Assembly (NCBI GenBank): GCA_964538065.1
Contig: CAZIDG010000011.1
Location: forward strand, 4,930 to 68,929
Direction: 5' to 3'
Length of the DNA: 64,000 nucleotides
Origin: an uncultured Verrucomicrobiota bacterium
Lineage (GTDB): Bacteria > Verrucomicrobiota > Verrucomicrobiia > Limisphaerales > UBA1319
Part shown: positions 17,175-41,861 of the stretch, in pieces
How positions within the stretch are numbered: the stretch's first letter is position 1
Layout of the letters: every line of letters begins with the position of its first letter
Notes under the pieces: model-generated
What the model was told of the DNA's origin: nothing
Seen by the model: only the letters and a program-made list of their open reading frames with translations
The model's database searches: none
Program-made: the position numbers and the translations under genes

Positions 17175-17175
17175 C

Positions 17176-19205: not shown

Positions 19206-19236
19206 CTCATATGCTATTTGGTTTTAGGAGGGCAAA

Positions 19237-20019: not shown

Positions 20020-20454
20020 AACCTTTTGGAAATCGTTTGCCTCATGCTACTCTTTTGAAGGGCATATGCCTTAACGATACTGCCATATTTTAGCATGATA
20101 TTGCCACTCGACAACCATAATCTGGCAAAGAGGATTATGAGCCATGCGACACGCTGCATCAGCGTGGGAATACACCTTATCCTCAAGTGGATACGTCCAT
20201 GTCCAGACACCTGTTCCCAGGACGGAATTGTCAGATGCGGTCCTCAGCACACACACCATCCAATCCCATTGCAAGCATGGTATTTACATTACCATCCATC
20301 TCATTCGATTGGGTAAAATACTCCCCGGCAGAAAGTTGCAGCGTTTCGGCAGGTCGTGCCCGCCCCTGCTATTTGGCCGTCATCAAACCCCTCCAGTGCG
20401 TTTCCAAAGCCCATACTTGCCTTTTGGAGGATTGTTTTTTATATACTGGGTAGC

Positions 20455-21267: not shown

Positions 21268-21290
21268 ACAAGGTTAACCTCTTACAACAC

Positions 21291-22319: not shown

Positions 22320-22342
22320 CCTTTTCCACGAAAGGAGGCTCC

Positions 22343-22636
22343 ATGTTTACCGTCATGGTTCATATCAAGGTCAAACCTGAGTGCATCGAGGCATTCAAGG
22401 CGGCTTCGCTGGACAATGCCCACCATAGCCGTCAGGAGCCTGGCATCGCCCGTTTTGACTGTTTTCAGCAGACCGATGATCCTGCACGTTTTGTCTTGGT
22501 GGAAGCCTATCGCTCAGCCGAAGACCCCGCCCGACACAAGGAGACTGCTCATTACCAGCGCTGGCGCGATGCCGTAGCCAGCATGATGGCGGAGCCGCGC
22601 TCCAGCGTGAAATATGTCTGGCAGAATCCCCAATAA
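22343..22636 (+). CDS. Antibiotic-biosynthesis-monooxygenase (ABM) domain protein
   Basis: ~97 aa: '[74 protein letters not shown]', the classic ABM ferredoxin-like pattern. The track ORF 22238 is longer; ATG 22343 is preferred. Confidence 0.7.
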
Positions 22637-22662
22637 CGACAAACATTCCTGGAAATGATGAT

Positions 22663-23872: not shown

Positions 23873-26209
23873 TTACGGGGTGCTCAACCGATAATACCGC
23901 GCCGCAGCGGTTGGCGCGGTGTCCGTGACTTCAATCGTCTGCGATGCGCTGACTGCTGAAATGTTGGTCAACACCTGCCATGTGGAATTCAACGCATTAT
24001 CGCAATACCACACGGAATAACTGCGGCCCGCCATCACCGAAACGGCAATGCCCATGCTTTTGCCCTTCGGAACCACTGAACCGATGGTCAACTTGCTGGC
24101 AGCATCAGCGGGATCTGTGCCACAAAGATATTCGCTCTGATTCGACAGGCCATCCGCATCCATGTCCAGGGCTGCATCCAATGGCGAAGACGGATTCAAA
24201 CCATGGGACAGCTCCCATTCGTCAGGCATGCCATCGCCATCCAAGTCCGTGGCCGCTCCCGTATTATGCCATCCGGGGGTTGGGGCGCCTGTTTTCCAGC
24301 ACACCGGATCATTGCCATAAACGAATGCATTTGTTTTCTGCAGGGAATATCCTGTTCCGGCAGCACCGGCCGGCCAGGGATAGATGCTGGAGTAATCCAC
24401 CTTCTCAACCGTCACGTAGGGCACAATCCCCTCGTTAATGTGCGTAATGCCCTGGATGTAATCAGGCTCCAGCAACGAAATCGGCTCCGAGGAGTTGCTC
24501 AATTTGCCATCATATGGCCCATACAGCTTCACCCCATCAGGAACGCCATAGCGGCTGATAAATTCAGCCCGAGCAACGGTATTGGTCTCAGGATCGAAGC
24601 TAACCACAAGGATATATCCTCCCGCGGGGATCACTGCATTCTGCGGGAAATCAAAGTCCACCCCACCGCGCAGGCGCCAGGTGTTGGTCGTCTCCACCAC
24701 ATGATGCAATGGCACGGGAACAGCCGTCATGTTGAACAATTCGATGTACTCATCCTGGACATTGTCGTTGGTGGTTCCTGCAGGCGACGGCGGCTGGAAC
24801 ATGATCTCAGAAATGACGACAGGTCCCACAGCAGGGCCGGAATTGGCCGAGCCAATGGTATTTGTGATCTGCATGGGATACTGCACCACTCCGACACTGT
24901 TGGTATAGCGTCCCAACGTGGTCGCATTGAAGGTGGGCCCAAAGGAAATGGTGGCGCGATATCCGGTAAGGTTGCCTGCGGCGTCGGCGGCCGACACGAA
25001 AACGGAATCTCCTTCTGAAGAGTTCAGATTGAACGCCACAAGGCCGTTTGTAAAATCGTGCTCGTAATACACCATGTATCCCAAGCCAGGCAACTGCGTG
25101 CCCGAGGGAATGCGGAATTTCTTCAGGTTCGACAGACTATCACTGAGGTACCACCCTCCAATATCCACCATGCTGCCCGTGGGGTTCAACAACTCAATCG
25201 CATCCTCCAGTGGCGGATCCGTATGGGTCAACACCTCGTTGATCACCACCGTGCTCAATGGCAAATAGTTGCTCTCGGCGGGTGAAGGGGTGGTGTAAAA
25301 TTTGACCACCGTGGTGGCATTGCCGTCGGGCAGGCGTCCCTCCGACACTCCATTGAGTTGGGCCAGGAAGATCACACTATCAATGGCGGCCCCAATCTCG
25401 GGGAAGATGCCCAATTCATCCCCATCCTTTGAGAGTTTGAAATTCACATGCTTTGGGCCATTGGCCACCTTGTCATCCGCAATGAATTTCTGGAATGCCT
25501 GAGCTCCTGTGCCAATGAAAGAGAGACTGGGTATGCGAAACTTGCGGGGTGTTTTCTTCAGGCTGTTCGTGAGGTACAGGCCGCCAAGAGCCACCGGCTT
25601 GGTATCGGGGTTATAAATTTCAAACCAATCGTCACCCCCATCGGGATCGGCCATCCACTCATTAATCTTCAAGGCGGAGGGATTGCCCATGCTCACGAGC
25701 ACGTTGGCACTTCCTTTGGAAGGTTCCGTTAAAGTAAAGGCCGAGGCGTTTGACTGCTGACGTCCAATCGAAAAATCAGGAATCTGAATGCCAAAGACGA
25801 CGGAATCGACCAACTGGCTGTTGGCATCGTACAAATACACAGCATCGCCATCAGCATTCAACCCATACCCGGTGTTATAGGGTGAAGCCGGCGTTGTGTT
25901 GTCAAAATACACGACCAAGTAACGTCCCCCGCGGATGACAGATCCGTTCGGGAACACCCATTTGCGAGGATTTAATGGATCACTCGTCAGGCTCATCCCC
26001 TCCAGATCAACATCGTTCGTGGAAGCATTATAGAACTCCACCCAATCCGGAGTTGAGCCGCTGGATTCCACATAGGTGGCATTGTTAGCCAGCACCTCAT
26101 TGATAAAAACGTCACTGGCCTGGACATTAATAGACCACACCAACCCCGCACCCATCAGGGCTGTAACAAATAGGTTACGCATTTTGTATTTAATATGAGC
26201 AACATTCAT
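23873..26209 (-). CDS. Secreted protein 'A': 4x lamin-tail domain (LTD) + TSP3-like acidic repeats + C-terminal [FY][FY]R[LVA] module
   Basis: Signal peptide MRNLFVTALMGAGLVWSINVQA. Four repeats of the LTD pattern 'INE..(x)..DW[VFI]E[FIL][YF]N....V.L.G..L[ST]': 'FINEVLANN..DWVEFYNASTNDVDLEGMSLTSD', 'INEWMADP..DWFEIYNPDTKPVALGGLYLTN', 'VINEVLTHTDPPLEDAIELLNPTGSMVDIGGWYLSD', 'ISEIMFQP..EYIELFNMTA'. Then 'DLDGDGMPDEWE..DMDADGLSNQSEYLCGTDP'. The track ORF runs to 26293; plausible starts are 26209 or 26182. Confidence 0.8.
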   Translation of the reverse strand: MNVAHIKYKMRNLFVTALMGAGLVWSINVQASDVFINEVLANNATYVESSGSTPDWVEFYNASTNDVDLEGMSLTSDPLNPRKWVFPNGSVIRGGRYLVVYFDNTTPASPYNTGYGLNADGDAVYLYDANSQLVDSVVFGIQIPDFSIGRQQSNASAFTLTEPSKGSANVLVSMGNPSALKINEWMADPDGGDDWFEIYNPDTKPVALGGLYLTNSLKKTPRKFRIPSLSFIGTGAQAFQKFIADDKVANGPKHVNFKLSKDGDELGIFPEIGAAIDSVIFLAQLNGVSEGRLPDGNATTVVKFYTTPSPAESNYLPLSTVVINEVLTHTDPPLEDAIELLNPTGSMVDIGGWYLSDSLSNLKKFRIPSGTQLPGLGYMVYYEHDFTNGLVAFNLNSSEGDSVFVSAADAAGNLTGYRATISFGPTFNATTLGRYTNSVGVVQYPMQITNTIGSANSGPAVGPVVISEIMFQPPSPAGTTNDNVQDEYIELFNMTAVPVPLHHVVETTNTWRLRGGVDFDFPQNAVIPAGGYILVVSFDPETNTVARAEFISRYGVPDGVKLYGPYDGKLSNSSEPISLLEPDYIQGITHINEGIVPYVTVEKVDYSSIYPWPAGAAGTGYSLQKTNAFVYGNDPVCWKTGAPTPGWHNTGAATDLDGDGMPDEWELSHGLNPSSPLDAALDMDADGLSNQSEYLCGTDPADAASKLTIGSVVPKGKSMGIAVSVMAGRSYSVWYCDNALNSTWQVLTNISAVSASQTIEVTDTAPTAAARYYRLSTP

Positions 26210-26527
26210 TCCACTCCCAACACTCATGACATGTTGCAATTTACTGCCAACGAATGACTTACACATACCCACCACCCAACCCGCACTCGTCACACGTTGT
26301 GAATCCGCTTCTCATACTGGTTTGCCCCCACCCATGACAAGCCTTTCCAATCACTCTTTCCATGTTACTGGCGGGGTTTGAGATCCTGAACAACGACCTC
26401 TGGAATCCAGAATGGGCACCATCTGCACCAGAATTCCTGGTTAAAGGGCTCAAGGCAGGCACATGCACCTTATTTGCATAAACCGGCAGGAAGCGACTGT
26501 TTGAGACGCATCGTTCGGTAATGCATC

Positions 26528-26562
26528 AAGGATGGCTGGGGATTGTGTCCTCAGCCATCCTT
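26528..26562 (-). terminator. Hairpin immediately downstream of gene B (possible terminator)
   Basis: Perfect 11-bp stem AAGGATGGCTG / CAGCCATCCTT with a 13-nt loop, ~45 nt after the stop at 26605. No clear U-tract on the minus strand. Confidence 0.45.
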
Positions 26563-26604
26563 TGAAGTTATCAGGGATAAGGGGAAAATCAGCACCACCT
26601 GCGC

Positions 26605-29600
26605 TCAAGGCAACGCCGGTGTGACAAGCCGGTAAAAACGCACGGGAGTAGTATGCGGGAGCGGATCTTCCACCTCGATGATGCGGGATGTTGAATCGGC
26701 GGCAACATCAGTCAGTTTTTGCCATCCTCCCGTGGCCAGACTGTCGCGGTACATTATTGAATAGGAATGCCCGGCAACAAACGCGAAACTGAGTTTGGGG
26801 CCGCCAACCGATCCATTCTTCAAATTCAACTTCAAGAAACTCTTGCTGTTGCGCGGATCGGTGCCCGCACCATATTCCTGCAAGTTGCTGGCGCCATCCT
26901 GGTCAGGATCGGCATTGTCACCCCCGATGGCGGGGTTGGCTATTTCTGCCTCGGTGAAATAGCGTTGTTTCCACACCAGAGCCGAATCCATCACAACGTT
27001 GATGGAGACCTCATGATAAACAGAGTGCTCGCCATCCTCAGCCGTCAAACGCAACACATACGGGCCAGGCTCCGTAATGGTCACCTTTGTTGCCAGCTCT
27101 GTGGTGGTCGAAAATTCAACCAGGGCAGGACCGGCCGACTGGCCCCAGTAAGTGTACAACGTCCCGGGAGGAACAGGCATGCCATCATCCACGGCCGTGC
27201 CGGTTAACTGCAGTACGATGGGCAACGCGGTGACGAGCAGATTGGCATCCTGTCCTGCGTACACATAGGGTTTGCGGTTGCTCTCCACCCCCGGGGATGG
27301 AGCGGGATCACTATCGCGCCAATTCAAGGCATCATTGCCAAAGCCAGAAGCAATCAGGCGTTCCAGCGAGGCTCCGCCCCCATCGGCATTGGTGGGCCAT
27401 GGATATTTGTCATTATAGCGAACTTCGTCCACAGTCACATAGGGCACGTACACAGTGCCATTGGTGTCCAATTCAGGAGCCTCAGGCTGCTGCAATTGCA
27501 GCAGTTCACCGCTATCCTGCAGCACCCCACTCATCGGCCCGAAAACCGGCACACTCGATGGCACCTTGTACTGGGTGCGGAAGGAATTGGTATCCCCAGC
27601 CACAACAAGGAATAGGCCATTTGCGGGGATCTCCACGTTGGGAGGGAAGGCATAGCCGCCGCCCTTCAACCGCCACGTGTTGGTGGAAAATCTTGCATCA
27701 TAGAGTTTCACCACGTTGGTGCTTATGTTCTTGAACTCAACGAACTCGGTTTGCCCCGTCGCAGGATGATAATAGATTTCGTTGATGACGATGGGCCCCA
27801 CGCGCGGACCACTGTTGACCCGGCCCAGGGTATTGGTCCTTTGGGCAGGGAAGAAAACCTCGCCCAGGCTGTTGGTATAGCGTCCAAATGTGACACCCGT
27901 TGCAGCGGCATCGAACTCCACCCCGTCACAATAACCGGTAAGCTCACCCGCCGCATTCGCAGCGAACAAATACACCTGTTCGCCATGTGAACTCAGGGTG
28001 AAGCTTGGATCAATCCCGGGGGTTGGATTAAAGTCGCTTTCGGTCAAGACCACATAACCTCCCGCCTGAACGGTCCTGCCTGCTGGTATGCGGTATTTTT
28101 TGGGTGTTTTCTTGTCATCCGTCAAATACCAGTAACCAATGTTAATGTTAAAATCAGTTGGATTATGCAGCTCGATGGCGTCGACCTCAGGAGGCTCGGA
28201 GTTGCTCAAGAACTCATTGATCAGAACCGTGCCCGTCAGAGGCTCGGGATCATCCGCTCCCGGAGATCCGCCCCGGAATGCGCTGGCCCGCCAGTGGGCC
28301 GCATTGTCAGGATCGGAATTCGCATTGGGATTCATGGGGACAATGGAGAAACCCATGCCGTCAGCCGTTGCCGGCCAGGGCGCCCGCGAATCATATTTTA
28401 CCGAAAACAATGGCGTGCCAATGGCATGGACCAGGGTCAGTTCATCGCCATTGTTGGCCAACTGGCCGGCATACACTCCATCCACTTTGATGGAGGGATA
28501 ATTACTCTGGAAGGAAGCTGGATCGTGCACGAGAACGGCGAACTGACCGGGGGCCAGCACCGTGCCATTGGTAAAGGTGAAATCAATGCCTGAGGTGAAG
28601 TGAACCCCGCTCAAATCCAGAATGTCAGTTCCAATATTCTTGAGTTCGAGGAACTCAAACCGATCCCCGTCGGCCTGTCCCTGATCCTGCGGATGATACA
28701 TGATTTCTGTGATGACCAATTCCTTGAAGGTTTGAATCACAAGGAAATCAGCCTCGGTCAAGGGGCTCCATTCCAGTCCATTCCATGTGCGAGCCATGAC
28801 ATGCTGATTTCGCCCGATGGTAATTGGACCGCGGTAAACCTGGGCCTGGGCAGAAATGGCACCTCCAAGAACGCGGGGATCCGTGCCATTCGTCGTATAG
28901 TAAATGGTCCCACCAAAAGCTTCCATGCTCAGATTGAAGCCCTTCTCCACATGACCTCCATGCTGTCCAAAGGAAGGGGCCTGCAAATTGGGGAAGAGAT
29001 TCTTATCCCTCAACTGCTGCAACACGACCCCCGTTCGGTAGGGCAGAATGTTGGTCAGCACATTGTTTATGGCTGCAATCCATTCGACATCGCGGGTCAG
29101 AGGTGTCGTTCGTTTGGAATCCCCCCAGCGCGCTGACTCGCCGACCACCGCACGGTCAATCTCGGTTTTGCGCCTCAGGAATCGTTCGATGCACTTGTCA
29201 GGAGTCAACACACCATCGTTGAACATGTGTTTCTGAATCCGGTCCGCAATCGTAAGACGAAACTCCGGACTATTCCACAACTGCTGCCATACCCATTGGG
29301 GACTGCTGTAGTAAACATCGTTGGTCCCGGCAGGGAATGGGCCCGTGCGGTCTTCATTCAAATCCAGAAGGGTGTGCTCGGCATCGTGAATGATGAAACG
29401 GAAACCATCCGCGCCGGTGCGATCACGAAGGCCATACCAATTGTTGGGCCTTTCGTTGTTCAGGAACCAGGAGATTGGCGCATCCAGATTGCCACCGTAC
29501 AGGATGATCAACATATAATCCACCAGGTTGGTGACATCGACCAGGTTTTCATACGCCGGATTACGGCTGCCATCCACGTTGCGCCCCTGGATCTTCATGT

Positions 29601-32259
29601 AATTGGCCAGATTCGTGAATACAATCCCATTGGTGCAGGCATTGTACAAGCGCACCCAGGCATCCATGGTGCCATCGGTCGCATTGTTACGATAAACGCC
29701 CGCCTCGACCTTGATCACGTCGTAGTTTTCCTTCTGTCCACCCAGATACGTCTCTGCATAGGAGGCCTCAGGACGCTCACAGGTGTTATACAATCCCCAA
29801 TAGAGGCCATTGATGTACAGGTGATAGAAATATCCCCTCTCCCCAGCCTGCCCCATTTCAAGCTGTGTATCCCGGTTCCACTGGTCGCGGATGAAGATGC
29901 CCCGGCTGTCCCCGCCATAGCTCCAGGAGTAGTTCTGCATCGTACGCAGATCGATGCAATCAAACGTATCGGTTCCTTCCTTTCCAAATAGCGGAAACAC
30001 CAATTTCCCAGCCCCATATTCCTGACGGAAGAAGAGTCGAAAGGCATGCTTGGGATTGTCCGCCGAACGGCTGTATCCGCCGCGGATTCGGACGCCTGCG
30101 TTGATCTGGAACCCCTCACTGCCATCGGGATTGATCAGTTCCACCGAGCAGGGTCGCTCCCAATCGGACCCATCCTGGCCCGCGTTGGCATAAATACCCT
30201 TGCCCGGGTCAAAAAGATCAGCCTGATCCATCACGATCGAGAATGTCGGAATGGATTTTAAGTCGTTTTTGATCGTTCCTGAATAGCGGGGATTGTTTAC
30301 CACCTCTGGATCCATGCCATAATCGACCGTATTGGCGCCCCAACTTGACGGCCATCCCGATGGGGCTTGTCCAGTGGGGCACTGCCGTATGACATCGCTC
30401 ACAAACACATAGGTGTGCGTGTCAACCTTTGAGGGCTCATAGCCTTCCTGATAGGCCGCTGCCCGGAGGGTTGTGGTACTGGCAATCCGCAGTGGACTCT
30501 TGTAGGTAAATCCATTGGACAACGTCGGCACAGAGCCATTGGTCGTGTAACGAATGGTGGCATTTGTGGTGGCACAGGTTATCTCCACCATGACTGGCGC
30601 ATCATAGAAACCGCGATCCACACTGAACTTCGTATCTGCTGCAAACGCAAAGAACCCAGCTGAATTCGGCTTTCCGGGCGATGCCACTCCGAAATAATGA
30701 TTGGTAGTGCCCAGCACCCTGTACTCAACCAACTCGGCTGACAGGTAAAACGTGGGATCATTGGAGCTGATGTTCAAACCCTGAATGGCCATCATGTTGG
30801 TGCCGTTGCGCAACACGCTGAGTTTGGAGGTCAGATCAATTTCCTCGAAGGAAAGCGATCCGGGCAAGCCATGCGTGTTGGTTGCGGTGGATTTCCATTG
30901 CGGACTGGTGGGGGCGTTCCGCCGAGCCACCTCCTGACCATTGATATACACAATAAACCCATCATCATACGCCATGCGAAGCGTTGCCCCCCCCAGGCTG
31001 GAGGTGTTGGTCATGACAAACGGCGAGCGCATGTAAAGTGTCGCATTCTTTCCCGCCATGATCTTTTGTACATCCGTCTTGATCCTGGGTTTGTAGCCAG
31101 TCGTGCTTCCAGTTCCCAATATGGGCGCCGTCACAGCCAAACCACCGTTGGCAATGTCGCCCACCAGATGGAAATTGGTTGAATTCCATGCGGTAAAGGC
31201 TCCTTTGGCTGCAAAAAACTCCACCTCCGATCCTCCCCACATCTCAAATGCCACCAAACGAAGTGAGACATTCGTGGCATAGGGGAACGTCACCGTCCCC
31301 AACGAATCCGTCGGTCCACGACCCGACGGATAGGACATGGAAAACCCTCCTATCGTCAGTAAAAATCCGTCATCACTGTTCACTCCGAACGTGTACGTCC
31401 CCGCCTCGGGAATCGACAGAGTTGCGATTGCCTCAATGACGAAGGAATCGATGTCAGCCCCCATCACAAAGCCGGGGTACGTGTAATCGTTGCCATAGTG
31501 GGCACCCCATTCCGTGTTCCGGTAATTGATGACATTGCGGTTCTCCTCGTACACAATGGTCTGCAAACCCGGACTGGCAATCACGGCCTCCGCATCGGTG
31601 AGGTTATAGATCTGGTTATTGGCCTTGAAGTTTTTCACGGCGAAACCGGGGGTCATGGTTTCATAGCCCACCGGGGTGTTCGCTGAGGTCCACTTCGAAT
31701 CATCATAGACAGGCTGGATCCAATTAAAACCCAGGTTTTGATTTGTTGGCACAACCACCCTGGCCGACGCGCCGTTGGTCAGAAACCGGTTCGTCATGAC
31801 CACCTGGCCCACCCCATAGGAAACATCCCTCTGTTGCTTGGGGTAGTTAATGAAGGCCGACGCAATGGTTTTCCCGTCGGGTTTCACGAGAACGACATCT
31901 CCTCCCGATGCAGAGAGTCGAAAATTGGTGTGCAATTCGGCGCCGGCTACCGCCCTATCCTTGCCGGAGGCAAACACAATGAGATAGGTATTGGGCTGCA
32001 TGGTCACAGCCGGGAATTTCCATTGAGCGAGAACGTTCGTGCTGTCGGTCAGATAATACCCCGCCAGGCTGCCCGCAAGAGGGCCGGGGTTATATATTTC
32101 AATCCAATCGGAATAATCCCCGTCCGAATCAGCCAGCACCTGCCCGTTACTAGCCAGAAATTCCGTTATCTGAAAGTCCTGGGCTCTGCCATTTTGAGCC
32201 CATAAACTCATCATCAACAAAAAGATAGCGCCGACTGTCACCAAACGTCTCATATTCAT
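26605..32259 (-). CDS. Giant secreted protein 'B' (1884 aa): LTD + PA14-like + CHB_HEX_C-like + CotH kinase-like + CHB_HEX_C-like + LTD-LTD + acidic repeat + C-terminal [FY][FY]R[LVA] module
   Basis: Signal peptide MNMRRLVTVGAIFLLMMSLWAQNGRAQ. LTD 'ITEFLASN..DWIEIYNPGPLAGSLAGYYLTD'. PA14-like 'IPEAGTYTFGVNSDDGFLLTIGG'. 'FSVDRGFYDAPVMVEITCATTNATIRYTTNGSVP'. CotH core 'AGVRIRGGYSRSADNPKHAFRLFF..YFYHLYINGLYWGLY..NNWYGLRDR..FRFIIHDAEHTL' (~29200-30260). Terminal LTDs 'INEFLSNSEPPEVDAIELHNP..' and 'INEIYYHP..EFVEFKN..'. Confidence 0.85.
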   Translation of the reverse strand: MNMRRLVTVGAIFLLMMSLWAQNGRAQDFQITEFLASNGQVLADSDGDYSDWIEIYNPGPLAGSLAGYYLTDSTNVLAQWKFPAVTMQPNTYLIVFASGKDRAVAGAELHTNFRLSASGGDVVLVKPDGKTIASAFINYPKQQRDVSYGVGQVVMTNRFLTNGASARVVVPTNQNLGFNWIQPVYDDSKWTSANTPVGYETMTPGFAVKNFKANNQIYNLTDAEAVIASPGLQTIVYEENRNVINYRNTEWGAHYGNDYTYPGFVMGADIDSFVIEAIATLSIPEAGTYTFGVNSDDGFLLTIGGFSMSYPSGRGPTDSLGTVTFPYATNVSLRLVAFEMWGGSEVEFFAAKGAFTAWNSTNFHLVGDIANGGLAVTAPILGTGSTTGYKPRIKTDVQKIMAGKNATLYMRSPFVMTNTSSLGGATLRMAYDDGFIVYINGQEVARRNAPTSPQWKSTATNTHGLPGSLSFEEIDLTSKLSVLRNGTNMMAIQGLNISSNDPTFYLSAELVEYRVLGTTNHYFGVASPGKPNSAGFFAFAADTKFSVDRGFYDAPVMVEITCATTNATIRYTTNGSVPTLSNGFTYKSPLRIASTTTLRAAAYQEGYEPSKVDTHTYVFVSDVIRQCPTGQAPSGWPSSWGANTVDYGMDPEVVNNPRYSGTIKNDLKSIPTFSIVMDQADLFDPGKGIYANAGQDGSDWERPCSVELINPDGSEGFQINAGVRIRGGYSRSADNPKHAFRLFFRQEYGAGKLVFPLFGKEGTDTFDCIDLRTMQNYSWSYGGDSRGIFIRDQWNRDTQLEMGQAGERGYFYHLYINGLYWGLYNTCERPEASYAETYLGGQKENYDVIKVEAGVYRNNATDGTMDAWVRLYNACTNGIVFTNLANYMKIQGRNVDGSRNPAYENLVDVTNLVDYMLIILYGGNLDAPISWFLNNERPNNWYGLRDRTGADGFRFIIHDAEHTLLDLNEDRTGPFPAGTNDVYYSSPQWVWQQLWNSPEFRLTIADRIQKHMFNDGVLTPDKCIERFLRRKTEIDRAVVGESARWGDSKRTTPLTRDVEWIAAINNVLTNILPYRTGVVLQQLRDKNLFPNLQAPSFGQHGGHVEKGFNLSMEAFGGTIYYTTNGTDPRVLGGAISAQAQVYRGPITIGRNQHVMARTWNGLEWSPLTEADFLVIQTFKELVITEIMYHPQDQGQADGDRFEFLELKNIGTDILDLSGVHFTSGIDFTFTNGTVLAPGQFAVLVHDPASFQSNYPSIKVDGVYAGQLANNGDELTLVHAIGTPLFSVKYDSRAPWPATADGMGFSIVPMNPNANSDPDNAAHWRASAFRGGSPGADDPEPLTGTVLINEFLSNSEPPEVDAIELHNPTDFNINIGYWYLTDDKKTPKKYRIPAGRTVQAGGYVVLTESDFNPTPGIDPSFTLSSHGEQVYLFAANAAGELTGYCDGVEFDAAATGVTFGRYTNSLGEVFFPAQRTNTLGRVNSGPRVGPIVINEIYYHPATGQTEFVEFKNISTNVVKLYDARFSTNTWRLKGGGYAFPPNVEIPANGLFLVVAGDTNSFRTQYKVPSSVPVFGPMSGVLQDSGELLQLQQPEAPELDTNGTVYVPYVTVDEVRYNDKYPWPTNADGGGASLERLIASGFGNDALNWRDSDPAPSPGVESNRKPYVYAGQDANLLVTALPIVLQLTGTAVDDGMPVPPGTLYTYWGQSAGPALVEFSTTTELATKVTITEPGPYVLRLTAEDGEHSVYHEVSINVVMDSALVWKQRYFTEAEIANPAIGGDNADPDQDGASNLQEYGAGTDPRNSKSFLKLNLKNGSVGGPKLSFAFVAGHSYSIMYRDSLATGGWQKLTDVAADSTSRIIEVEDPLPHTTPVRFYRLVTPALP

Positions 32260-32295
32260 TTTATCTCCGAACGTTTAATTAACCAGCGATTCGTT

Positions 32296-32325
32296 GCACG
32301 CACCTGAGTGTGGAAAGGTGCGTGC
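32296..32325 (-). other. Stable hairpin in the C-B intergenic region / 5' leader of gene B
   Basis: Perfect 10-bp stem GCACGCACCT / AGGTGCGTGC with a 10-nt loop, 37-66 nt upstream of the gene B ATG (32259) and ~150 nt downstream of the gene C stop. No U-tract. Confidence 0.5.
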
Positions 32326-32474
32326 GTCACGGGAACAATGACCAAAATACTCCGCGTACCACGCTTACTTTTCAAGCTCTTTCGTGATGGAAAAGCTCCC
32401 GTCCCTACACACAGTCAACGAGGGTGCGACGCGGCTTTGCGCCACGGGGGGTTCCCTCCTTTAGAAAAACAAAC

Positions 32475-34883: not shown

Positions 34884-34966
34884 TTGATTCCGGTCGTTGT
34901 TCTCAACTTCTTCTCATCCCCATGCATCTACAAGATAAACCAGGAATTGAGACCTGCTCAGCTCGT

Positions 34967-37900
34967 TCAGGGACGCCGTGCCCGATAGAACAGTGCGTTA
35001 TTCTGCAGGCTGTTCGTATCCATCACCTCGACTCCGCCGCTTGGAAGGTTGGTTTTGAGAACCTCACTCCAATCCACCAAATTGGTGGAACAATCCAAAA
35101 TGACCTGACTGCCACTCGGGCCGTTCAACCTGATGACGAAAGGTGCACCGGGGGCTTGTCGGGGAGCCGCCAGGACCAGGGGCGCATCCATTTCCACCTT
35201 GCCTGGGGTCGGGGTGGCTGCCTTCCAATTGTCCGCCAGGTTTCCAGAGCTGGTCAGGCGAATCCGTCGCAGTGCCGCCCCCAAACCATCTGCATCGCCA
35301 TCCCACGGGGCACTATCCGAGTAAATCACCTCGTCTTGTATGATCCACGAAACAGCGTCGCCTGGCACATCAGGGGCTTCGGGCTTTTCAATGGCAATGC
35401 GCCCGCTGTCATTGGCCAGTTTTCCGCCATAGGGTCCCAGAAACAGATTGTCCCCGTTCGTCAGCGCATACCGCTCCTTGAATGCATTGAGCAGGATGGC
35501 ATCTGAAGGATCGAAATTGACCAACAACACCACTCCTCCTGGAGGAAGCACGAGATTGGTGGGGAATGAGAAACTGATGCAGCCATCCACCCGCCACGCT
35601 CCAACGTCATTGACCAATGCCACATTCGTCCCTGTGGGATTGTATATCTCCACATATTCATCAACGGTGTTGTCCGTCTGGTTCGTGTCGGTCATCGGCG
35701 GGTGATACATGAATTCACTAATCACCAAATGGATGGCGACCGGCCCGTTGCTGCCGCCCAGGGAAGGCAAGAGCGAAACCCAGGCAGCGCCACCGTCCGG
35801 ATACCGCCCAATGGATTCCAACCGATCCTGCCCCTTGAAGCTGATGGCATCCACAACACGATCCTGCCCATTCCCGGGAAGGTAGGACAAAAACACCTGG
35901 TCCCCTGCTTTCGACAGTCCAAAACCATTGGTCAGGTACTGATGAAAACCAGACACCTCGTCAAAAACAACATGCCCATGGGAAGGCACGACCTGGCTGG
36001 GAATGGCCCATTTGTTCAACACCGAGGCATCATCGCTCAGATAATAATGGTCGAGCGAAACGGCCTCGGAGGAAGGGTTAAACAGTTCGACCCAGTCATT
36101 CGAATCAAATCCGGGATTGGCTGGATCCACATAATCGGTATGCGCCATGACTTCATTTAATACCACACCCGATGGCGTTGGCGGCTCACTGGCCCCTGGT
36201 GATCCTTTGATCAGCACGCTGCTTCGCCAGGCACCGGGATAATCGGGATTTCCCGACAAATCCGCCACCAGGGAATGCCCTGTGCCATCCGCAGCAACTG
36301 GCCATCCGCGCCCATCTCCATAGGTAAAGGAGGTTATGACAGTGCCATTGCCAGAGGTTTTGAGTGTGATGGTTTCACCTTTGTTGTCCAGGAAGCCGGC
36401 ATACGGTCCCTGAATCAATGTATCAGTGCCCAGTCCGTAGAATGATCGGAACGATGCAAACTGGTTGTCCACTGGTGCGCGAACCACAAGCAGGTGTCCT
36501 CCCGGTGGCAGCGACACACCCGAAGCGAACGTGTAATCAACCCCCTGAGTAAACCGGACGCCGCTCAGATCCAAAGTCACCGCATCGCTGGTGTTCACGA
36601 GCTCGATATACTCATAATCCGTCCCTGCCGGTGGATTGTACATGAGTTCAGAAATGCGCAAATGGGCCTGCAACTCCGCCACCATATCCGTCTCTCCCGC
36701 CACAAACTCCACCGGGGCCGACCAATGGCTCCAACGGCCTGCCGAGTCCTTCATGCGTGCCCGCACCCGGTAGGTATGGCCCACCTTTACTTCCTCTGCA
36801 GGAATGGTCATGGTTTGGGAAAAGATCGCCAGCTCCTGGCTCTCCCAGTCTGTTTCAATCTCGTACTTGCGCGGATTCTCCGGATCCCGCACGGGCGCAC
36901 TGGCGGGAGTGATCTCCGCCAACCGCCATTTCATCCCTCCAAATGATCCTCCGCTGCTGGAAAAGGCAGAAGTCCTGAATGCCAGTCGGTTTACAGGATG
37001 GTTGGTGGGGCCTTCATAAGTGATGACCGGCGTCCCTGGAATGGCCGCATCGCTGGCCAGATTGTCCAACAATGTCGAGCGGGTCTTCACATAATTCTTC
37101 ATCAACTGAATCGTTCCCAGGAATGTCTTCGACACCGTCGGCTCATAGGGAAATTGGTAAAACCGCCCCTGCCCCGCCTTGCTCGAGTTTACATAGGAGG
37201 AGACCATGACGGGGTTGTAATCCCACTGGGCGCGATCGGCATCCACGAAGGAAAGGCCTCCCGCGGGGGTGTAGATGGTCGCGGCGTATTCATCAATGAG
37301 TTGGCCGGCTTGTTCGTCATTGAATAGCAGGTCGCGCAGTTCCCGCACCCGGTTTTTGTACTCCAAATTAAACACCGTCCGCGTCAATAGCCGGTTCTTA
37401 AAAGGATCCGCTCCCTGGCCGCCTGCGTCATACATGGTATCCGCCCATGTCAGGTCCAGATCCCAGGGATGTTCGGACCAGATGCCATTGGTGGGGTTCA
37501 GGTAATAAAAGTAATTCTTGCCGCCTCCAATGTCATAGTGGTGAATGCCCTGAACGATCGCCTGGTAATTGTAGTAGCGATTCACGTCCAGGTTGGTCCG
37601 CCACCAGGCATCGCCAGGCGCCGGTGAGGTTTGCGAATACTGCGTCACAAAGGCTGCCAGATCAGACTTGTCAGTCGCCGCAGTCGGCCCTTGATTGTTC
37701 AAATCTCCGTAAGGCCATCCATAGGCACCACTATCCATCTTGTACAAATTCCCATCGGGCAGGCCATGTTCATCCAGGAATTTTCCGTCCTCCTGCTCAA
37801 TCGCCAGATACAACCCCCAAAAGTCGCCTGTGTATTGACTGGTCGAACTGGCCTCATCCGCCTCATCAATAATCCGGTAGTGAATCCAGTGGGTATAGGG

Positions 37901-39946
37901 CGCTTCAACACCAGCCAGATTGAACAGCTTGAGCCCCACCGATTCGAACATCCCTTGTTCACCCCGATGGCCGTAATCGCCCTGTTGAATGCAGGCCCCC
38001 AAATTGATCTTCGACCACTTCGTCTTGTAGGCCTTTCCAAAATTGTCGTGTGGCTGGAAGTAATGCCCCCTGTTCATATCCAGTTTCCACATGTTCTTCC
38101 CCATCGAGTAACGCCACACGCCCCCACGCATCCGGTAACGAACATGATCATACACCTCCCCGTCATACACCAGCGTCCCCCACCACAAGTAATCGTCCCC
38201 GCCGTATTGTTGAATCCACGTGGCATTCTCCACGGAGGTCTTTTTGGAAATCAAATGATACACGGGAAGGCTGTTCATGATGTTGGTGTCGAATGTTTGG
38301 ACCGAGGTGATGCCGGGACGGGCTGCCCCCTTCCAGGCAGGCACGCCATCATACACCATATAAGCGAAGTTCGGCTGCGGATCATCCTGATAGGGTACAC
38401 GCACCGAGGTGCCCTGCTTGTCCTTGGCCGTGATTCTGTATCGGATTAGCCGCCGATGTTGCTGCACATCAGCAGGTATCGTCACCGTATAGACATCATC
38501 CCCCGCCACTTCATCCCCACCTGTGCCATCATCCGTCATGGCCAGTTTGATCCAATTGCTGTTGTAGGCAGCATCATTCAATTCGATATACGCACCTGGA
38601 CTGACAATCTGGTACTCCAGAACCACTTCCTGAACCCCCTCAGGATCAGTCACTTTTGCAGTGATCGGAACCGCCTGGCCTGATTGGGGTTGTTTGGGAT
38701 GATGCGCCACCTGGCGAATCTGAGGTGGAATCAACGTGGAATAGGATCCGTTGCGTTTCCCCGGCGTGGGCCCATGCACCAGCGTGTTGGTGACCACGAC
38801 ATAATTCGTATAGGAATCAATCTGAATGAGTTGGAGCGCCGCCAAACGCATGCCAAACACGACGTCGCTGCTCTGGTTGTTGCTTTGATGCACCTCAACC
38901 GACAAAAGATTGGAGCCCTGCACAAGATTATGTTCAGGCTTCAGCTCGAATGTAACCACCTCAGCCTCAGTTGCATTGCCCACATTGCGGCTGGCCGGTG
39001 TCTGGTAATTCACCACATCGTTCGTCTGCATGCCCAACCGTCCCAATTCCACCCCATTGATATAGAAGACAGCGCCGTCGTCGAGGAGGGTGGTGATTTC
39101 GAGGGCGCCTACGGAATCAGTCGTCACATCAAACCAGGTCCGGAAATAGAACGTCATCTGTTGCGGGCTGGTGTAGGTGAGCGGCGTTGTCTTGGCCCAA
39201 GGCAGGGTGGACTCTTCGCGATAGAAAAGCCCTGCTCCCTCCGGCCATGCCTGGTCCACATACGCAGGCTCTCTCCACGCGGTTCCCAGATCGTCTCCAC
39301 TCTGGTTGTACCGCCATGTCTTGGTTTCGGTAAACAACGGCACCTGGTTGGTCTGATATTCATTAACCACCACCTCATTGGTCACCACGCTCGAGGCCGA
39401 CCATGACCTCCAGCTCCCGCCTAAATTGTTGTCCAGGTTTGGATTAAGCAACTCGATGGAATAACCTGGCGCATCCCCCACGATCGGCCACGGGAAAGAC
39501 GCTCCGTATTCCACTTCATCCTCAATGACACCCTGGGCATTTCTCAAGACCACACGCTCCCCTTCGTTGGACAGATTTCCCTGATAGGGCCCCAAGGCAG
39601 AGGCTTGGAACTTCGTAGCGAGAAAAGTGGGGTTTTGCGCAACCACAAGGTATCGATCTGGCTGCAAAAGGGTTCCTGAGGCAAACGTATATTGGATGCC
39701 CGACGTAAAAGCCCATCCACTCATGTCCACCACATTGGTGCCATTATTGTATAACTCAACGAATCCGGCGGGCTCGGTCTTAACATCCGGGTGGTAGTGG
39801 ATTTCATTGATCACTATGTCCGCATGCACCAACGACATGGACCATAGAAAAAGCAAACATGCCACCTTCTCAGGGCAGTGTTTCATCGACATGGATCCTA
39901 AATTAAATCCAGCAAATAGGCTCGTGAGCATAGTGTTGAACTCCAT
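34967..39946 (-). CDS. Giant secreted protein 'D' (1659 aa): LTD + beta-rich modules + CotH kinase-like + LTD x3 + C-terminal [FY][FY]R[LVA] module
   Basis: Probable start ATG 39886 (MKHCPEKVACLLFLWSMSLVHA signal). LTD 'INEIHYHPD..FVELYNNGTNVVDMSGWAF'. CotH core 'VRYRMRGGVWRYSMGKNMWKLDM..GDFWGLYLAIEQ..KNYFYYLNP..HPWDLDLTWAD' (~37300-38300). Later LTDs 'ISELMYNP..EYIELVN', 'LNEVMAHTD..DWVELFNPSSEAVSLDHYYLSD', 'ISEFMYHP..EYVEIYNPTG'. Confidence 0.85.
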   Translation of the reverse strand: MEFNTMLTSLFAGFNLGSMSMKHCPEKVACLLFLWSMSLVHADIVINEIHYHPDVKTEPAGFVELYNNGTNVVDMSGWAFTSGIQYTFASGTLLQPDRYLVVAQNPTFLATKFQASALGPYQGNLSNEGERVVLRNAQGVIEDEVEYGASFPWPIVGDAPGYSIELLNPNLDNNLGGSWRSWSASSVVTNEVVVNEYQTNQVPLFTETKTWRYNQSGDDLGTAWREPAYVDQAWPEGAGLFYREESTLPWAKTTPLTYTSPQQMTFYFRTWFDVTTDSVGALEITTLLDDGAVFYINGVELGRLGMQTNDVVNYQTPASRNVGNATEAEVVTFELKPEHNLVQGSNLLSVEVHQSNNQSSDVVFGMRLAALQLIQIDSYTNYVVVTNTLVHGPTPGKRNGSYSTLIPPQIRQVAHHPKQPQSGQAVPITAKVTDPEGVQEVVLEYQIVSPGAYIELNDAAYNSNWIKLAMTDDGTGGDEVAGDDVYTVTIPADVQQHRRLIRYRITAKDKQGTSVRVPYQDDPQPNFAYMVYDGVPAWKGAARPGITSVQTFDTNIMNSLPVYHLISKKTSVENATWIQQYGGDDYLWWGTLVYDGEVYDHVRYRMRGGVWRYSMGKNMWKLDMNRGHYFQPHDNFGKAYKTKWSKINLGACIQQGDYGHRGEQGMFESVGLKLFNLAGVEAPYTHWIHYRIIDEADEASSTSQYTGDFWGLYLAIEQEDGKFLDEHGLPDGNLYKMDSGAYGWPYGDLNNQGPTAATDKSDLAAFVTQYSQTSPAPGDAWWRTNLDVNRYYNYQAIVQGIHHYDIGGGKNYFYYLNPTNGIWSEHPWDLDLTWADTMYDAGGQGADPFKNRLLTRTVFNLEYKNRVRELRDLLFNDEQAGQLIDEYAATIYTPAGGLSFVDADRAQWDYNPVMVSSYVNSSKAGQGRFYQFPYEPTVSKTFLGTIQLMKNYVKTRSTLLDNLASDAAIPGTPVITYEGPTNHPVNRLAFRTSAFSSSGGSFGGMKWRLAEITPASAPVRDPENPRKYEIETDWESQELAIFSQTMTIPAEEVKVGHTYRVRARMKDSAGRWSHWSAPVEFVAGETDMVAELQAHLRISELMYNPPAGTDYEYIELVNTSDAVTLDLSGVRFTQGVDYTFASGVSLPPGGHLLVVRAPVDNQFASFRSFYGLGTDTLIQGPYAGFLDNKGETITLKTSGNGTVITSFTYGDGRGWPVAADGTGHSLVADLSGNPDYPGAWRSSVLIKGSPGASEPPTPSGVVLNEVMAHTDYVDPANPGFDSNDWVELFNPSSEAVSLDHYYLSDDASVLNKWAIPSQVVPSHGHVVFDEVSGFHQYLTNGFGLSKAGDQVFLSYLPGNGQDRVVDAISFKGQDRLESIGRYPDGGAAWVSLLPSLGGSNGPVAIHLVISEFMYHPPMTDTNQTDNTVDEYVEIYNPTGTNVALVNDVGAWRVDGCISFSFPTNLVLPPGGVVLLVNFDPSDAILLNAFKERYALTNGDNLFLGPYGGKLANDSGRIAIEKPEAPDVPGDAVSWIIQDEVIYSDSAPWDGDADGLGAALRRIRLTSSGNLADNWKAATPTPGKVEMDAPLVLAAPRQAPGAPFVIRLNGPSGSQVILDCSTNLVDWSEVLKTNLPSGGVEVMDTNSLQNNALFYRARRP

Positions 39947-40025
39947 TTCTAAGCATTTCTTATTCCATGGTCAAACGCCTTTATGGAGCGACAAACTCTT
40001 TGTTTCGAATCATTTGACGGCAACT

Positions 40026-40048
40026 CCCCCCCCACCCCTCGTTTTTTT
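40026..40048. repeat. Homopolymer-rich tract C8-A-C4-TCG-T7 upstream of gene D
   Basis: CCCCCCCCACCCCTCGTTTTTTT read directly at 40026-40048, ~80-140 nt upstream of the candidate gene D starts. Confidence 0.9.
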
Positions 40049-40100
40049 AGGGCTTGCCCAGTTCGTGACCAACCCCCTCAGGCATGATCGGACCATGCAT

Positions 40101-40259
40101 TTATTGAAAAAAGTGTTTCGTTGGGGGGCCAAAGACCAGTTGGTGGCCTCGTTCGGTCAGGCAAGCCTCCTGCGGCTTGTGGATGGACAACTCTGCCTCC
40201 GTGGCGGCAACGTCGATGATCATGCCGCCGCCAAGGAATGGATCGCCCTTTTTTGCCAT
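40101..40259 (-). CDS. Candidate small ORF (52 aa), unannotated
   Basis: Below the ORF-track size cut-off. Sequence: ATG 40259..TAA 40101, MAKKGDPFLGGGMIIDVAATEAELSIHKPQEACLTERGHQLVFGPPTKHFFQ. It is preceded on the minus strand by GAGGA 8 nt upstream of the ATG. It lies in an otherwise empty 683-bp gap. I recognise no family. Confidence 0.25.
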   Translation of the reverse strand: MAKKGDPFLGGGMIIDVAATEAELSIHKPQEACLTERGHQLVFGPPTKHFFQ

Positions 40260-40382
40260 GAAGCCGTTCCTCGATGGGAAAAATCAAATACCTCCCCCAT
40301 GCAATGACAATGGGTTCAGGTCAAAGCCACCTGCTGAAGGACAACCCGTTCGGCATCACCGTTTTTCAGGCTACAGACGCGG

Positions 40383-40410
40383 CGGCGTCCGACTCTCATC
40401 GGCGTCCGAC
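40383..40410. repeat. 11-bp perfect direct repeat CGGCGTCCGAC x2 (6-bp spacer)
   Basis: CGGCGTCCGAC at 40383-40393 and 40400-40410, in the long intergenic region between the lipoprotein gene and gene D. Confidence 0.9.
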
Positions 40411-40629
40411 ATGTCCCTTTTGATTCCCTGTGTTTTAGGATGAATCCCCGGGGGGCGTCCCATGCGATATTACACTAAACGGATGAGGTTTCTGGAAAGA
40501 CCCATGGCCCATGCCCTGGGTGCCAGGATGGGCCGCTTGACTCATTTCGAGCCCCGTCCGATCCATCCCCCCATCCCTTCCGGATTTCAGCTTCTGCCTG
40601 AAGGACTTATTCAGAATTACCGGATGAAA

Positions 40630-40995
40630 TTACTGCACCTTGACGATCTTCAGGACACCGGTTTTGGGATTATAATCAAAACGCGATCCCGGAGGAAGCG
40701 GAGGGAGGCTGGGCAGGTACTTCTTGGTGACCAATTCATTCAAGTCCTTGGGGAATCGCTCCTCCTGGGCATTGAACATGTCGATGGCTTTAGTGATCGA
40801 GGCCAGATCCACGACCTTGTTGGCCGATTGCTGCGCCTTGAGCATGGTCCCCACATAATCCGACGGTGCATTGAGGGGATTTTCGCCCACCTTGGATACA
40901 TTGGTCGCGGCTGGTTTATTTTGCGTATCCTGCTTTTCTCCGCAGCCCATAATCAACGCTGACAAAACCAGCGAAGTAATATAGATCGCTTTCAT
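40630..40995 (-). CDS. Small lipoprotein with pseudopilin (GspG)-like C-terminal region
   Basis: Lipobox 'LSALIMGC'. The C-terminal 'ITKAIDMFNAQEERFPKDLNELVTKKYLPSLPPLPPGSRFDYNPKTG' follows the pattern of the type II secretion pseudopilin globular domain, but it lacks the prepilin N-terminus. Confidence 0.55.
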   Translation of the reverse strand: MKAIYITSLVLSALIMGCGEKQDTQNKPAATNVSKVGENPLNAPSDYVGTMLKAQQSANKVVDLASITKAIDMFNAQEERFPKDLNELVTKKYLPSLPPLPPGSRFDYNPKTGVLKIVKVQ

Positions 40996-41069
40996 AAAAT
41001 CAAATTACACCCCGTTTAAATAACAGCCAACTGTCCCGAGCCCATGATGTTCCCGGAACCCGTTTCCCA

Positions 41070-41861
41070 TCAATGAACCCACACGCGGTAGTAGGTCGCG
41101 GGCAGGGTCGCGGGATAAAAAGTGTCAACGCGATTCCCCGTACCCTGGATCGGCGATCCCACATCCTCCCAAACGGTATTATTGGTCGATTTCTGAATGG
41201 TATACATGCTGCCCAGAGTGGTATCGAACCAGACATTCACGGCCCGTTCCATATTAAGCACTACTGGTTCAGGCTCGACAGCATAGACCCGGAAATTCCG
41301 CAACACCCGTGGGGAATCCACGCTGCCAATGCCGTTGATCGATATCTGCACGGGCGTATGAACACCCACGTTGGTGGCTGCCGTACTGATCACCTGTCCA
41401 TCCGCACACACATAGGACAGCATCATATAGCCCTTCCGATACAGGAGGGAAAGCCGTCCCTGGTTGGTTGAGGCTGCCGGCAAACTGACCCAGTTGTTCG
41501 TTCCACCGATGGTACCGATGGAGATGCCGTCCATGCTCTCGGAGTCAAAACGCAAAATGGCACGCGGAGTTATGGAAGTAAGGGTGAAGTATACATCGTA
41601 CCAGGGTATGTTGAGGGTGCCGCTTTTTTCGACATCCACCTCCACCCGGATGTCCCCGCTAAAACTCTGGGTGGTCTGAAGCATGCACCGTCCAGTCATG
41701 ACAAGAGAACTGGATGTAAAGACCATGTTGGTCGAACCCGAAAAGACGAAGTTGGTGTCTGCCAATCCTGAGGAAAAATCGTCAGACAACAACAGCGTGT
41801 CCGCCTTGACTGACGGTACCACCAACAACGCTGCGACCACCGCCGCAAACAATGCTTTCAT
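41070..41861 (-). CDS. Secreted beta-rich protein (lectin/jelly-roll-like?) with the same C-terminal [FY][FY]R[LVA] module
   Basis: Signal peptide MKALFAAVVAALLVVPSVKA. The body is beta-strand-rich. The last ~57 aa, 'AVNVWFDTTLGSMYTIQKSTNNTVWEDVGSPIQGTGNRVDTFYPATLPATYYRVWVH', match the tails of A-D. Confidence 0.6.
   Translation of the reverse strand: MKALFAAVVAALLVVPSVKADTLLLSDDFSSGLADTNFVFSGSTNMVFTSSSLVMTGRCMLQTTQSFSGDIRVEVDVEKSGTLNIPWYDVYFTLTSITPRAILRFDSESMDGISIGTIGGTNNWVSLPAASTNQGRLSLLYRKGYMMLSYVCADGQVISTAATNVGVHTPVQISINGIGSVDSPRVLRNFRVYAVEPEPVVLNMERAVNVWFDTTLGSMYTIQKSTNNTVWEDVGSPIQGTGNRVDTFYPATLPATYYRVWVH

Follow-up and report, generated by a model that had tools for sequence, protein, structure and literature searches.

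An uncurated C-terminal beta-sandwich domain family on predicted exported proteins of Verrucomicrobiota

The T9SS C-terminal domain (CTD; type A, TIGR04183/PF18962) is a small seven-stranded beta-sandwich without a transmembrane (TM) helix, found in a single and strictly terminal copy in surface proteins of one lineage, the Bacteroidota; these proteins are exported by Sec, are often very large and otherwise unrelated, and carry it at their extreme C-terminus. Secreted bacterial enzymes, proteases among them, may carry one or two C-terminal copies of the pre-peptidase C-terminal (PPC) domain or of a similar beta-sandwich, which is thought to assist in secretion or retention and is frequently removed. 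The PEP-CTERM feature, associated with exosortases, is likewise C-terminal on exported proteins and is abundant in Verrucomicrobiota. Members of this phylum are abundant in the gut, in soil and in fresh water, and to our knowledge next to nothing is known of how they display or release their very large extracellular proteins. A preprint on Akkermansia Amuc_0953 has proposed a terminal domain resembling the T9SS CTD, together with 'a comparable system' (10.1101/2025.09.11.675649, 2025). Here we describe a C-terminal domain, the tail, which shares with the CTD a small predicted beta-sandwich, a place at the extreme C-terminus, the absence of a TM helix, otherwise unrelated, often very large passengers with putative Sec export, and an apparent restriction to a single lineage.

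Five neighbouring, co-directional genes (A to E) in a 64 kb stretch of DNA (the window) encode proteins with a single tail at the extreme C-terminus (Table 1), and their ORFs were confirmed at the coordinates given by an earlier, sequence-only reading. The ATG at 26182 is the likely true start of gene A (MRNLFVTALMGAGLVWSINVQA|SD), while the start codon of gene C is uncertain, its signal peptide being kept with either M2 or M5. The tail of D is attached directly, with no TSP3 linker. For the passenger domain of E, sequence searches of Pfam, NCBIfam and the PDB gave nothing. Each of the five proteins has a plausible Sec signal peptide, and we call them secreted on the basis of N-termini judged by eye and by a crude hydrophobicity rule.

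Table 1. Genes A to E and their tail domains (HMM scores are from the model built without window sequences)
Feature	Coordinates	Strand	Organisation or chain end	Score
Gene A	23873..26293	-	LTD x4, Asp-rich TSP3-like linker, tail	
Tail domain of A	23876..24115	-	..ARYYRLSTP; stop codon 23873-23875	HMM 69 bits
Gene B	26605..32259	-	1884 aa; LTD, PA14, Fn3_assoc/CHB_HEX_C, CotH, LTD x3, PKD-like, TSP3-like linker, tail	
Tail domain of B	26608..26859	-	..VRFYRLVTPALP; AlphaFold2 six strands	pLDDT 86.8; HMM 69 bits
Gene C	32475..34883	-	LTD x4, TSP3-like linker, tail	
Tail domain of C	32478..32720	-	..SQFFRLLKP	HMM 75 bits
Gene D	34967..39946	-	1659 aa; LTD, CotH, LTD x3, tail	
Tail domain of D	34970..35182	-	..ALFYRARRP; divergent 'STNLxxW' subtype	pLDDT 87.9; HMM 12 bits
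Gene E	41070..41861	-	263 aa; signal peptide, ~190-aa domain, tail	
Tail domain of E	41073..41270	-	..ATYYRVWVH	HMM 25 bits, E = 6e-7

The five modules are 65-80 aa long, starting upstream of the boundaries assigned before (by about 7 codons for A, 8 for both B and C, 13 for D and 9 for E), and their last strand reads [FY][FY]R[LVA]. The stop had been placed 3-6 residues past this motif; counted from its Arg, the chain in fact continues for 4 residues in A, C, D and E and for 7 in B, and all but one of the five proteins end in Pro. Searching the last 15 residues of the 501 stop-to-stop ORFs of the window (at least 60 aa) with the regular expression [FYW][FYW]R[LVAIM] gave six matches, five of them the tail proteins; the sixth (12429-14150, '..EWWRARK') lacks HMM support and is a chance match. 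When all window ORFs of 50 aa or more were ranked with an HMM built from 46 domain copies of other organisms, with no window sequence included, the five tails took the first five places and the next ORF had an E-value of 0.48; the HMM thereby singled out the very proteins in which a common C-terminal pattern had been noticed. The tail of D, the weakest member by HMM score, is confirmed in the family by profile-profile alignment of D-type and B-type tails (hhalign probability 97.7%, E = 2e-12), and the two share a strand order in AlphaFold2 predictions. One could suppose that the common ending is a chance or low-complexity likeness, or reflects paralogy of A to D, rather than a separable module, given that the LTD family takes in all four of A to D, and also 74 of the 88 tail ORFs from the genome loci described below. 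This is hardly credible: E has an unrelated passenger, the domain is found across dozens of unrelated Pfam architectures, and this diversity, together with the exact selection of the five tails by an independent HMM, refutes it.

A profile of the five tails, a search proposed in the sequence-only reading, revealed a large family, with 4,684 matches at E <= 1e-3, of which 252 reach E <= 1e-10, among 1.84e9 cluster representatives; word-indexed searches with tail profiles returned 1 and 4 proteins and were uninformative. Isolated tails had no Pfam or NCBIfam match even at E <= 10, and we found no description of the domain in the literature. The tails belong to a single domain family that is rich in members, uncurated and typical of Verrucomicrobiota. 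Cluster look-ups carried almost no taxonomy (one cluster was labelled Verrucomicrobiota). A single-sequence scan of genomes with the tail of B gave 78 loci, with close relatives almost solely from Verrucomicrobiota plus one record labelled Lentisphaerae, so that the family appears to be lineage-restricted, as had been suggested; because these loci mainly hold whole-protein homologues of A to D, they tell us little about how diverse the passengers are or how far the family extends taxonomically. A partial Bacteroidota protein matched a half-domain repeat alone and is no true member.

Structure prediction with AlphaFold2 gave a confident six-stranded beta-sandwich for both the B and D subtypes, in keeping with the discrete C-terminal sandwich that had been proposed for these otherwise unrelated, presumably exported proteins. 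Conserved residues are G-x-x-Y in strand three, a W just before strand four and R-F-Y-R-[LV] in the last strand. These residues determine the fold and do not form a motif for cleavage or recognition of the LPXTG or PEP-CTERM kind. Copies of the domain at internal positions retain RFYR[LV] as well, from which it follows that the motif is structural, the last strand of the domain, and not the terminal signal for which it had been taken. Its relatives are weak and generically FN3/Ig-like alone. Among the 50 PDB matches listed by Foldseek, the best were FN3/Ig-like (probability 0.98, E 0.06-0.1, TM ~0.5) and all had E > 0.05, while hmmsearch against the PDB found FN3con at E = 5e-5 for the whole sequence, each stretch being weak, and the Fn3-like 3mpc at 0.012. 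FN3 (PF00041) is the top class among the Foldseek matches; the first four strands of the tail align to the FN3 consensus and to 3mpc, its FYR aligns to a Y-rich stretch that we read as the FN3 F strand, and the tail too forms beads-on-a-string arrays with Pro-rich linkers. In contrast to FN3, with its ABE/C'CFG topology, both tail models lack a G strand, the tail follows a strong terminal-position rule with a Pro-COOH ending, and the Pfam fn3 model misses tails, matching a separate N-terminal domain alone in array proteins. The FN3 scores are marginal, and comparable partial matches were obtained to F5/8 type C (discoidin)/CBM32 models; these were sub-threshold, covered about 40 of 91-127 model positions around a 'Y.v..S.D...W' hairpin, and none was full-length.

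How strictly the tail is terminal depends on whether proteins or domain copies are counted. Per protein, the strict C-terminal placement claimed earlier nearly always holds: a copy is flush with the C-terminus in about 93% (139/150) of the best 150 of the 4,684 hits, a sample biased to query-like sequences and hence to terminal copies, in 85 of the 87 tail ORFs of the 78 genome loci, and in 15 of 17 further tail ORFs found in ~1 Mb of flanking DNA. Per copy it does not, as internal copies outnumber terminal ones (188 versus 140) and proteins commonly carry several copies in tandem. A region around a D orthologue (L083), picked irrespective of its other genes, gave two C-terminal and two N-proximal copies, the domain lying near the N-terminus in two FGE-sulfatase proteins, which makes the terminal rule strong but not absolute. 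The sequence-only reading had named internal hits as frequent as terminal ones, or a motif that is simply a generic Ig/FN3 terminal strand, as grounds against a tag: on the first the count by copy goes against the tag and the count by protein does not, and on the second the motif proved to be such a strand. A passive FN3/Ig-kind folding cap, spacer or stability module with no specific partner, whose C-terminal place merely reflects 3'-end duplication and accretion, would fit these other positions, as well as the frequent recent tandem duplication within proteins, the generic FN3/Ig likeness and the core-strand nature of the motif. We consider it somewhat doubtful nonetheless, since it leaves unexplained the frequent stop 4 or 7 residues past the Arg (90/133 terminal cases) with Pro as the last residue (also 90/133, 68%), and since a spacer at a free C-terminus, lacking any anchor further on, would have nothing to space. 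The usual chain ends are FYR-h-x-[ST]-P-COOH and FYRLVTPxxP-COOH, and Pro at position +4 is present in 63% of terminal versus 13% of internal copies.

Passenger domains of the family include fn3, TSP3, DUF11, P_proprotein, LTD, Ig, F5/8C, CotH, Peptidase_S8, Calx-beta and LamG. Like the PPC domain, the tail is therefore found on subtilases and P-domain proteins; unlike it, it forms much longer arrays, and the two have no sequence-model match. As for the anticipated co-occurrence with signal peptides, a crude rule was positive for 50 of 65 complete tail ORFs and 140 of 499 controls. The tail is also retained in orthologues of D (48-89% identity), all 117 complete ones of which end in it with varying subtype: 15 have a D-type tail with no TSP3-like linker and 91 have the linker with a B-, C- or A-type tail. 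Such retention, which accretion of a passive domain alone would leave unexplained, suggests that the tail is kept under selection. LTD-family ORFs without a tail are frameshift fragments or are cut at locus ends and do not represent tail loss.

That the terminal copy might be an export or sorting signal for a putative outer-membrane translocation or attachment machinery of Verrucomicrobiota, a functional analogue of the T9SS CTD with possible cleavage or modification at the conserved x-[ST]-P-COOH end, is argued for by its near-obligate flush position on unrelated, apparently exported passengers, by its terminus-specific ending with Pro and fixed 4- or 7-residue spacing, and by its staying terminal in D orthologues despite upstream insertion of linkers or Ig arrays. 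The Akkermansia preprint points the same way. Terminal copies also resemble terminal copies of other proteins modestly more than chance predicts (nearest neighbours in other proteins: terminal to terminal 54, terminal to internal 40, internal to terminal 52, internal to internal 141), which could be a sign of a terminus-specific function. However, among the 94 terminal copies that multi-copy proteins carry, 30 are closest to an internal copy of their own protein, known beta-sandwich export signals are single-copy whereas tail arrays are common, and N-proximal copies exist. As to the formal analogy with the CTD that was first drawn, PF18962, TIGR04183 and TIGR04131 matched neither full proteins (E <= 0.01) nor isolated tails (E <= 10), no solved T9SS CTD was among the 50 Foldseek PDB matches listed, the tail has six predicted strands to the CTD's seven, and no machinery, T9SS or other, is linked to it. 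Neither T9SS core genes (PorK/L/M/N, SprA, PorU/V) among the ORFs scanned in the window and in 8-10 kb flanks elsewhere, nor any gene family recurring beside tail genes on clustering of flanking ORFs from the 78 loci, could be found. We regard an export signal as distinctly unlikely; the evidence decides neither for nor against a sorting tag. A related, improbable reading takes the terminal copy (FYR-h-x-[ST]-P-COOH) as an address tag for surface display or outer-membrane export specific to Verrucomicrobiota, equivalent in function to the T9SS CTD and built on an FN3-like fold that lacks the G strand. An outer-membrane receptor might then supply a strand to complete the open edge at strand F, and internal copies would be duplicated spacers.

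As the sequence-only reading had stated, tails have no PEP-CTERM or TM feature: they are folded domains ending 4-7 residues past FYR, without PEP motif, TM helix or basic cluster, and the PEP-CTERM motif expression had no match in the window. An XrtU-type exosortase is encoded in the window at 4430-6154. It was considered as tail machinery and rejected because of the missing PEP-CTERM features and because no exosortase recurs in the other loci.

We take the tail for a new terminal module of the FN3/Ig-like kind. Our preferred explanation of its role, held tentatively and at less than even odds, is binding or retention at the surface. Family membership, the class of the fold, the positional statistics, the diversity of passengers and the conservation in orthologues are results of the analysis, whereas export, binding and retention are inferred. 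Its occurrence in internal tandem copies makes it look more like such a module than a proven sorting signal, and arrays at a free C-terminus with no other anchor would fit binding by avidity. In this picture multidomain extracellular proteins, presumably exported by Sec, bear the tail as an addition at their C-terminal end, either as one copy or as a tandem array with linkers that are Pro-rich or TSP3-like and Ca-binding, and the chain stops right after the last strand. The tail would then act as a putative non-covalent binding or retention module for a cell-envelope or matrix ligand, holding LTD/CotH, protease, lectin-like or adhesin-like passengers. Avidity would rise with the number of tandem copies, and a Pro at the terminus would shield the exposed end from carboxypeptidases. 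On this view the tail does not serve as a signal for outer-membrane export that is then cleaved off. Most of these statistics would also be expected if its role were purely structural.

For the Verrucomicrobiota, a domain family that runs to thousands of members, lacks a curated model and is almost always terminal offers a concrete handle on the display or release of their very large extracellular proteins. It permits a genome-wide listing of candidate surface-proteome members and phylogenetic profiling for partner genes, and, even if its role should be merely one of binding or structure, a tail model would annotate the ends of many giant proteins now called 'hypothetical'.

All five neighbouring minus-strand genes A-E encode proteins that end in the same C-terminal module (the tail, 65-80 aa), confirming the common pattern that the sequence-only reading had picked out, and no other ORF of the window carries it. 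An HMM built without the window sequences places the five tails on top at 75, 69, 69, 25 and 12 bits; the best of the remaining ORFs has E = 0.48. hhalign links the weakest-scoring tail, that of D, to the rest (97.7%, E = 2e-12), as does an identical predicted strand order. In A, C, D and E the stop codon comes four residues after the Arg of the terminal [FY][FY]R[LVA] (FYR) motif, and in B seven residues after it; Pro is the last residue in four of the five.

The window is part of a metagenome contig, and its tail genes lie in a co-directional cluster, transcribed in the order S46/Dpp7-like peptidase, E, 121-aa ORF, D, C, B, A. Each of A-D contains four LTD (lamin-tail-domain) stretches, accompanied in B and D by the further domains listed in the table. 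An Asp-rich, TSP3-like linker directly precedes the tail in A and C (residues about 680-735) and in B (about 1780-1810). This linker gives sub-threshold matches to the NCBIfam 'Amuc_1099 family pilus-like system protein' and to the thrombospondin-type-3 protein MtsD, and other family members show the junction of Ca-binding repeat and beta-sandwich again, among them P0002, P0003 and P0006, in which linker and tail form a repeating unit. For protein E, neither Pfam nor NCBIfam nor the PDB sequences gave a match. The N-termini of A-E, read by eye and with a crude rule, look like Sec signal peptides. For A and C, the mechanically assigned GTG is probably not the true start: canonical signal peptides are obtained from the ATG at 26182 in A and from M2 or M5 in the ORF of C as listed. 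In a related contig, C is called as a 775-aa protein, which would cut off the signal peptide. The S46/Dpp7-like peptidase is without a tail, so the module is not on every exported protein of the region, and the 121-aa ORF is conserved in two related contigs, L001 and L003, where it has been called as a gene.

Features of the tail-gene cluster and of other loci in the window
Feature	Position	Strand	Remarks
Exosortase, XrtU type	4430-6154	+	Exosortase_EpsH 9e-39; C-terminal domain NCBIfam exosortase U, 106 bits against a cut-off of 40
TPR protein after exosortase	6151-7593	+	Weak PrsT-like similarity
Pseudopilin-like protein	19237-20019	-	260 aa; prepilin-type N-terminal cleavage/methylation motif; 4 kb from cluster
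A	23873-26293	-	LTD protein
B	26605-32259	-	LTD protein with CotH, PA14, Fn3_assoc/CHB_HEX_C and PKD-like domain
C	32475-34883	-	LTD protein
D	34967-39946	-	LTD protein with CotH
121-aa ORF between E and D	40630-40995	-	No Pfam or NCBIfam match
E	41070-41861	-	
S46/Dpp7-like dipeptidyl peptidase	41907-44033	-	Signal peptide; 45 bp upstream of E

No model in Pfam-A or NCBIfam matches the tail, even at E <= 10 and with the T9SS sorting-domain models included. A profile of the five tails, searched against 1.84 billion cluster representatives, matches 4,684 proteins when the cut-off is E <= 1e-3 and 252 when it is E <= 1e-10. AlphaFold2, run on a 52-sequence alignment, gave a confident model of six strands (pLDDT 86.8), the last of which is FYRLV, and a second model for the D-subtype tail agrees with it (pLDDT 87.9). 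Foldseek against the PDB found no match to the tail model below E = 0.05; the top matches were FN3 domains, designed minimal Ig domains and the RsgI4 sensor domain (TM about 0.5), and no T9SS CTD was among the 50 matches listed. In a profile search of PDB sequences the matches were marginal: a consensus FN3 reached 5e-5 (summed), the CBM32 domain of a glucanase/chitosanase 0.003 and the Fn3-like protein 3mpc 0.012. Strands one to four align with the region that we read as FN3 strands A, B, C and C', and FYR aligns with a Y-rich stretch that we read as the F strand. The Pfam fn3 model misses the tail, matching only separate N-terminal FN3 domains in array proteins, where tail copies give partial, sub-threshold discoidin matches. 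Taken together, the tail is a small FN3/Ig-like sandwich, seemingly without a G strand, and any kinship with FN3 is very remote.

We scanned the GTDB species, each represented by one genome, with the tail of B; the scan, which samples only its close relatives, returned 78 loci. Of these, 72 are under Verrucomicrobiota names (Limisphaerales, Pedosphaera, subdivision 3, Chthoniobacter and others); the rest are one labelled Lentisphaerae, one unclassified and four TPA MAGs labelled Bifidobacteriaceae. The latter records (L019, L021, L036, L044; Bifidobacterium/Bifidobacteriaceae titles) encode typical verrucomicrobial LTD/CotH tail proteins, and as the N-terminus of the L019 protein is identical to that of L026, labelled Verrucomicrobia, the four labels are probably wrong. 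Across 55 family members we counted 60 different Pfam families, almost all of a kind usual in extracellular proteins, including fn3, TSP3, DUF11, P_proprotein, LTD, Ig, F5/8C, CotH, Peptidase_S8, Calx-beta and LamG. A crude signal-peptide rule gave a positive call for 50 of the 65 complete tail ORFs and for 140 of 499 control ORFs.

The sequence-only reading had proposed a test for strict placement at the C-terminus. Local re-scanning of the best 150 matches showed a copy within 12 residues of the C-terminus in 139 proteins, and about four more end in FYR below the detection threshold, but internal copies outnumber terminal ones (188 versus 140 of 328), and proteins often hold several copies in arrays. 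The rule is thus strong, not absolute, and less biased samples concur. Terminal tails account for 85 of 87 tail ORFs in the 78 loci and for 15 of 17 additional ones from the flanks. A 25 kb stretch around a D orthologue (L083) holds two terminal tails and two FGE-sulfatase proteins with the domain just after the signal peptide. These two are adjacent (16117-17292 and 17296-18561, +), with the tail-like domain at residues about 55-125 ('..KRFYQVV'); a Temptin_C and Ig-array protein of the same stretch (4295-5908) ends ..NNRFYRLFHP.

The FYR motif itself did not hold up as a terminal signal: RFYR[LV] is also kept in internal copies, marking it as a feature of the fold. Terminal copies are distinct at the extreme end, with the stop four residues after the Arg in 51 of 133 and seven in 39 of 133, Pro as last residue in 90 of 133, and Pro at position +4 in 63% versus 13% of internal copies. 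With the last five columns left out and neighbours taken from other proteins, the nearest neighbour is a terminal copy for 54 of 94 terminal versus 52 of 193 internal copies, while 30 of the 94, compared with every copy, match best an internal copy from the same protein. Terminal copies are therefore a mixture of a conserved positional subtype and of recent duplicates. The tandem and internal copies of the same kind, the occasional N-proximal copies and the structural nature of the motif all speak against a T9SS-like export signal as a general role, and we rank an export or sorting signal third, as improbable. The closest idea in the literature comes from a 2025 preprint, which remarks on the likeness of the last domain of Akkermansia Amuc_0953 to a T9SS CTD and on the possible existence of a comparable system (10.1101/2025.09.11.675649).

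When the ORFs of the 78 loci that are 150 aa or longer were clustered, no family proved recurrent beside tail genes, the LTD/CotH family itself excepted. In the window, the exosortase and the following TPR protein lie 18 kb from the tail cluster; PEP-CTERM features are absent from the five tails, and looking for a PEP-CTERM substrate among the ORFs of the window gave none. The cluster flanks (9539-23832) hold ordinary metabolism genes, none related to secretion: RhaA and RhaT (rhamnose), a LutB-like LUD/Fe-S protein, an acyl-CoA dehydrogenase-like protein, ETF-QO, ETF alpha and beta, and an Fe-alcohol dehydrogenase.

Among the 120 best homologues of D (48-89% identity), all 117 complete proteins end in a tail. 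A D-type tail is joined directly in 15, a TSP3-like linker with a B-, C- or A-type tail is present in 91, and Ig arrays are inserted upstream of the tail in some. Through these changes of subtype and linker, therefore, the domain keeps its place at the protein end while its surroundings are remodelled. A purely passive structural domain, which we rank second and consider unlikely, fits poorly with this retention across differing subtypes, with the flush terminal position and Pro-COOH ending, or with carriers that have no other anchor and ordinary type-I signal peptides.

The fold class and the general concept of C-terminal beta-sandwich modules are already known; in the libraries searched, no entry covers the family, its positional rule or its terminal signature. 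That the tail is a new, Verrucomicrobiota-typical, FN3/Ig-like terminal domain family is well supported. Given the points against both a T9SS-like export signal and a purely passive domain, we tentatively favour, at somewhat under an even chance, a role in which the tail would act as a non-covalent binding or retention module, with arrays supplying avidity.
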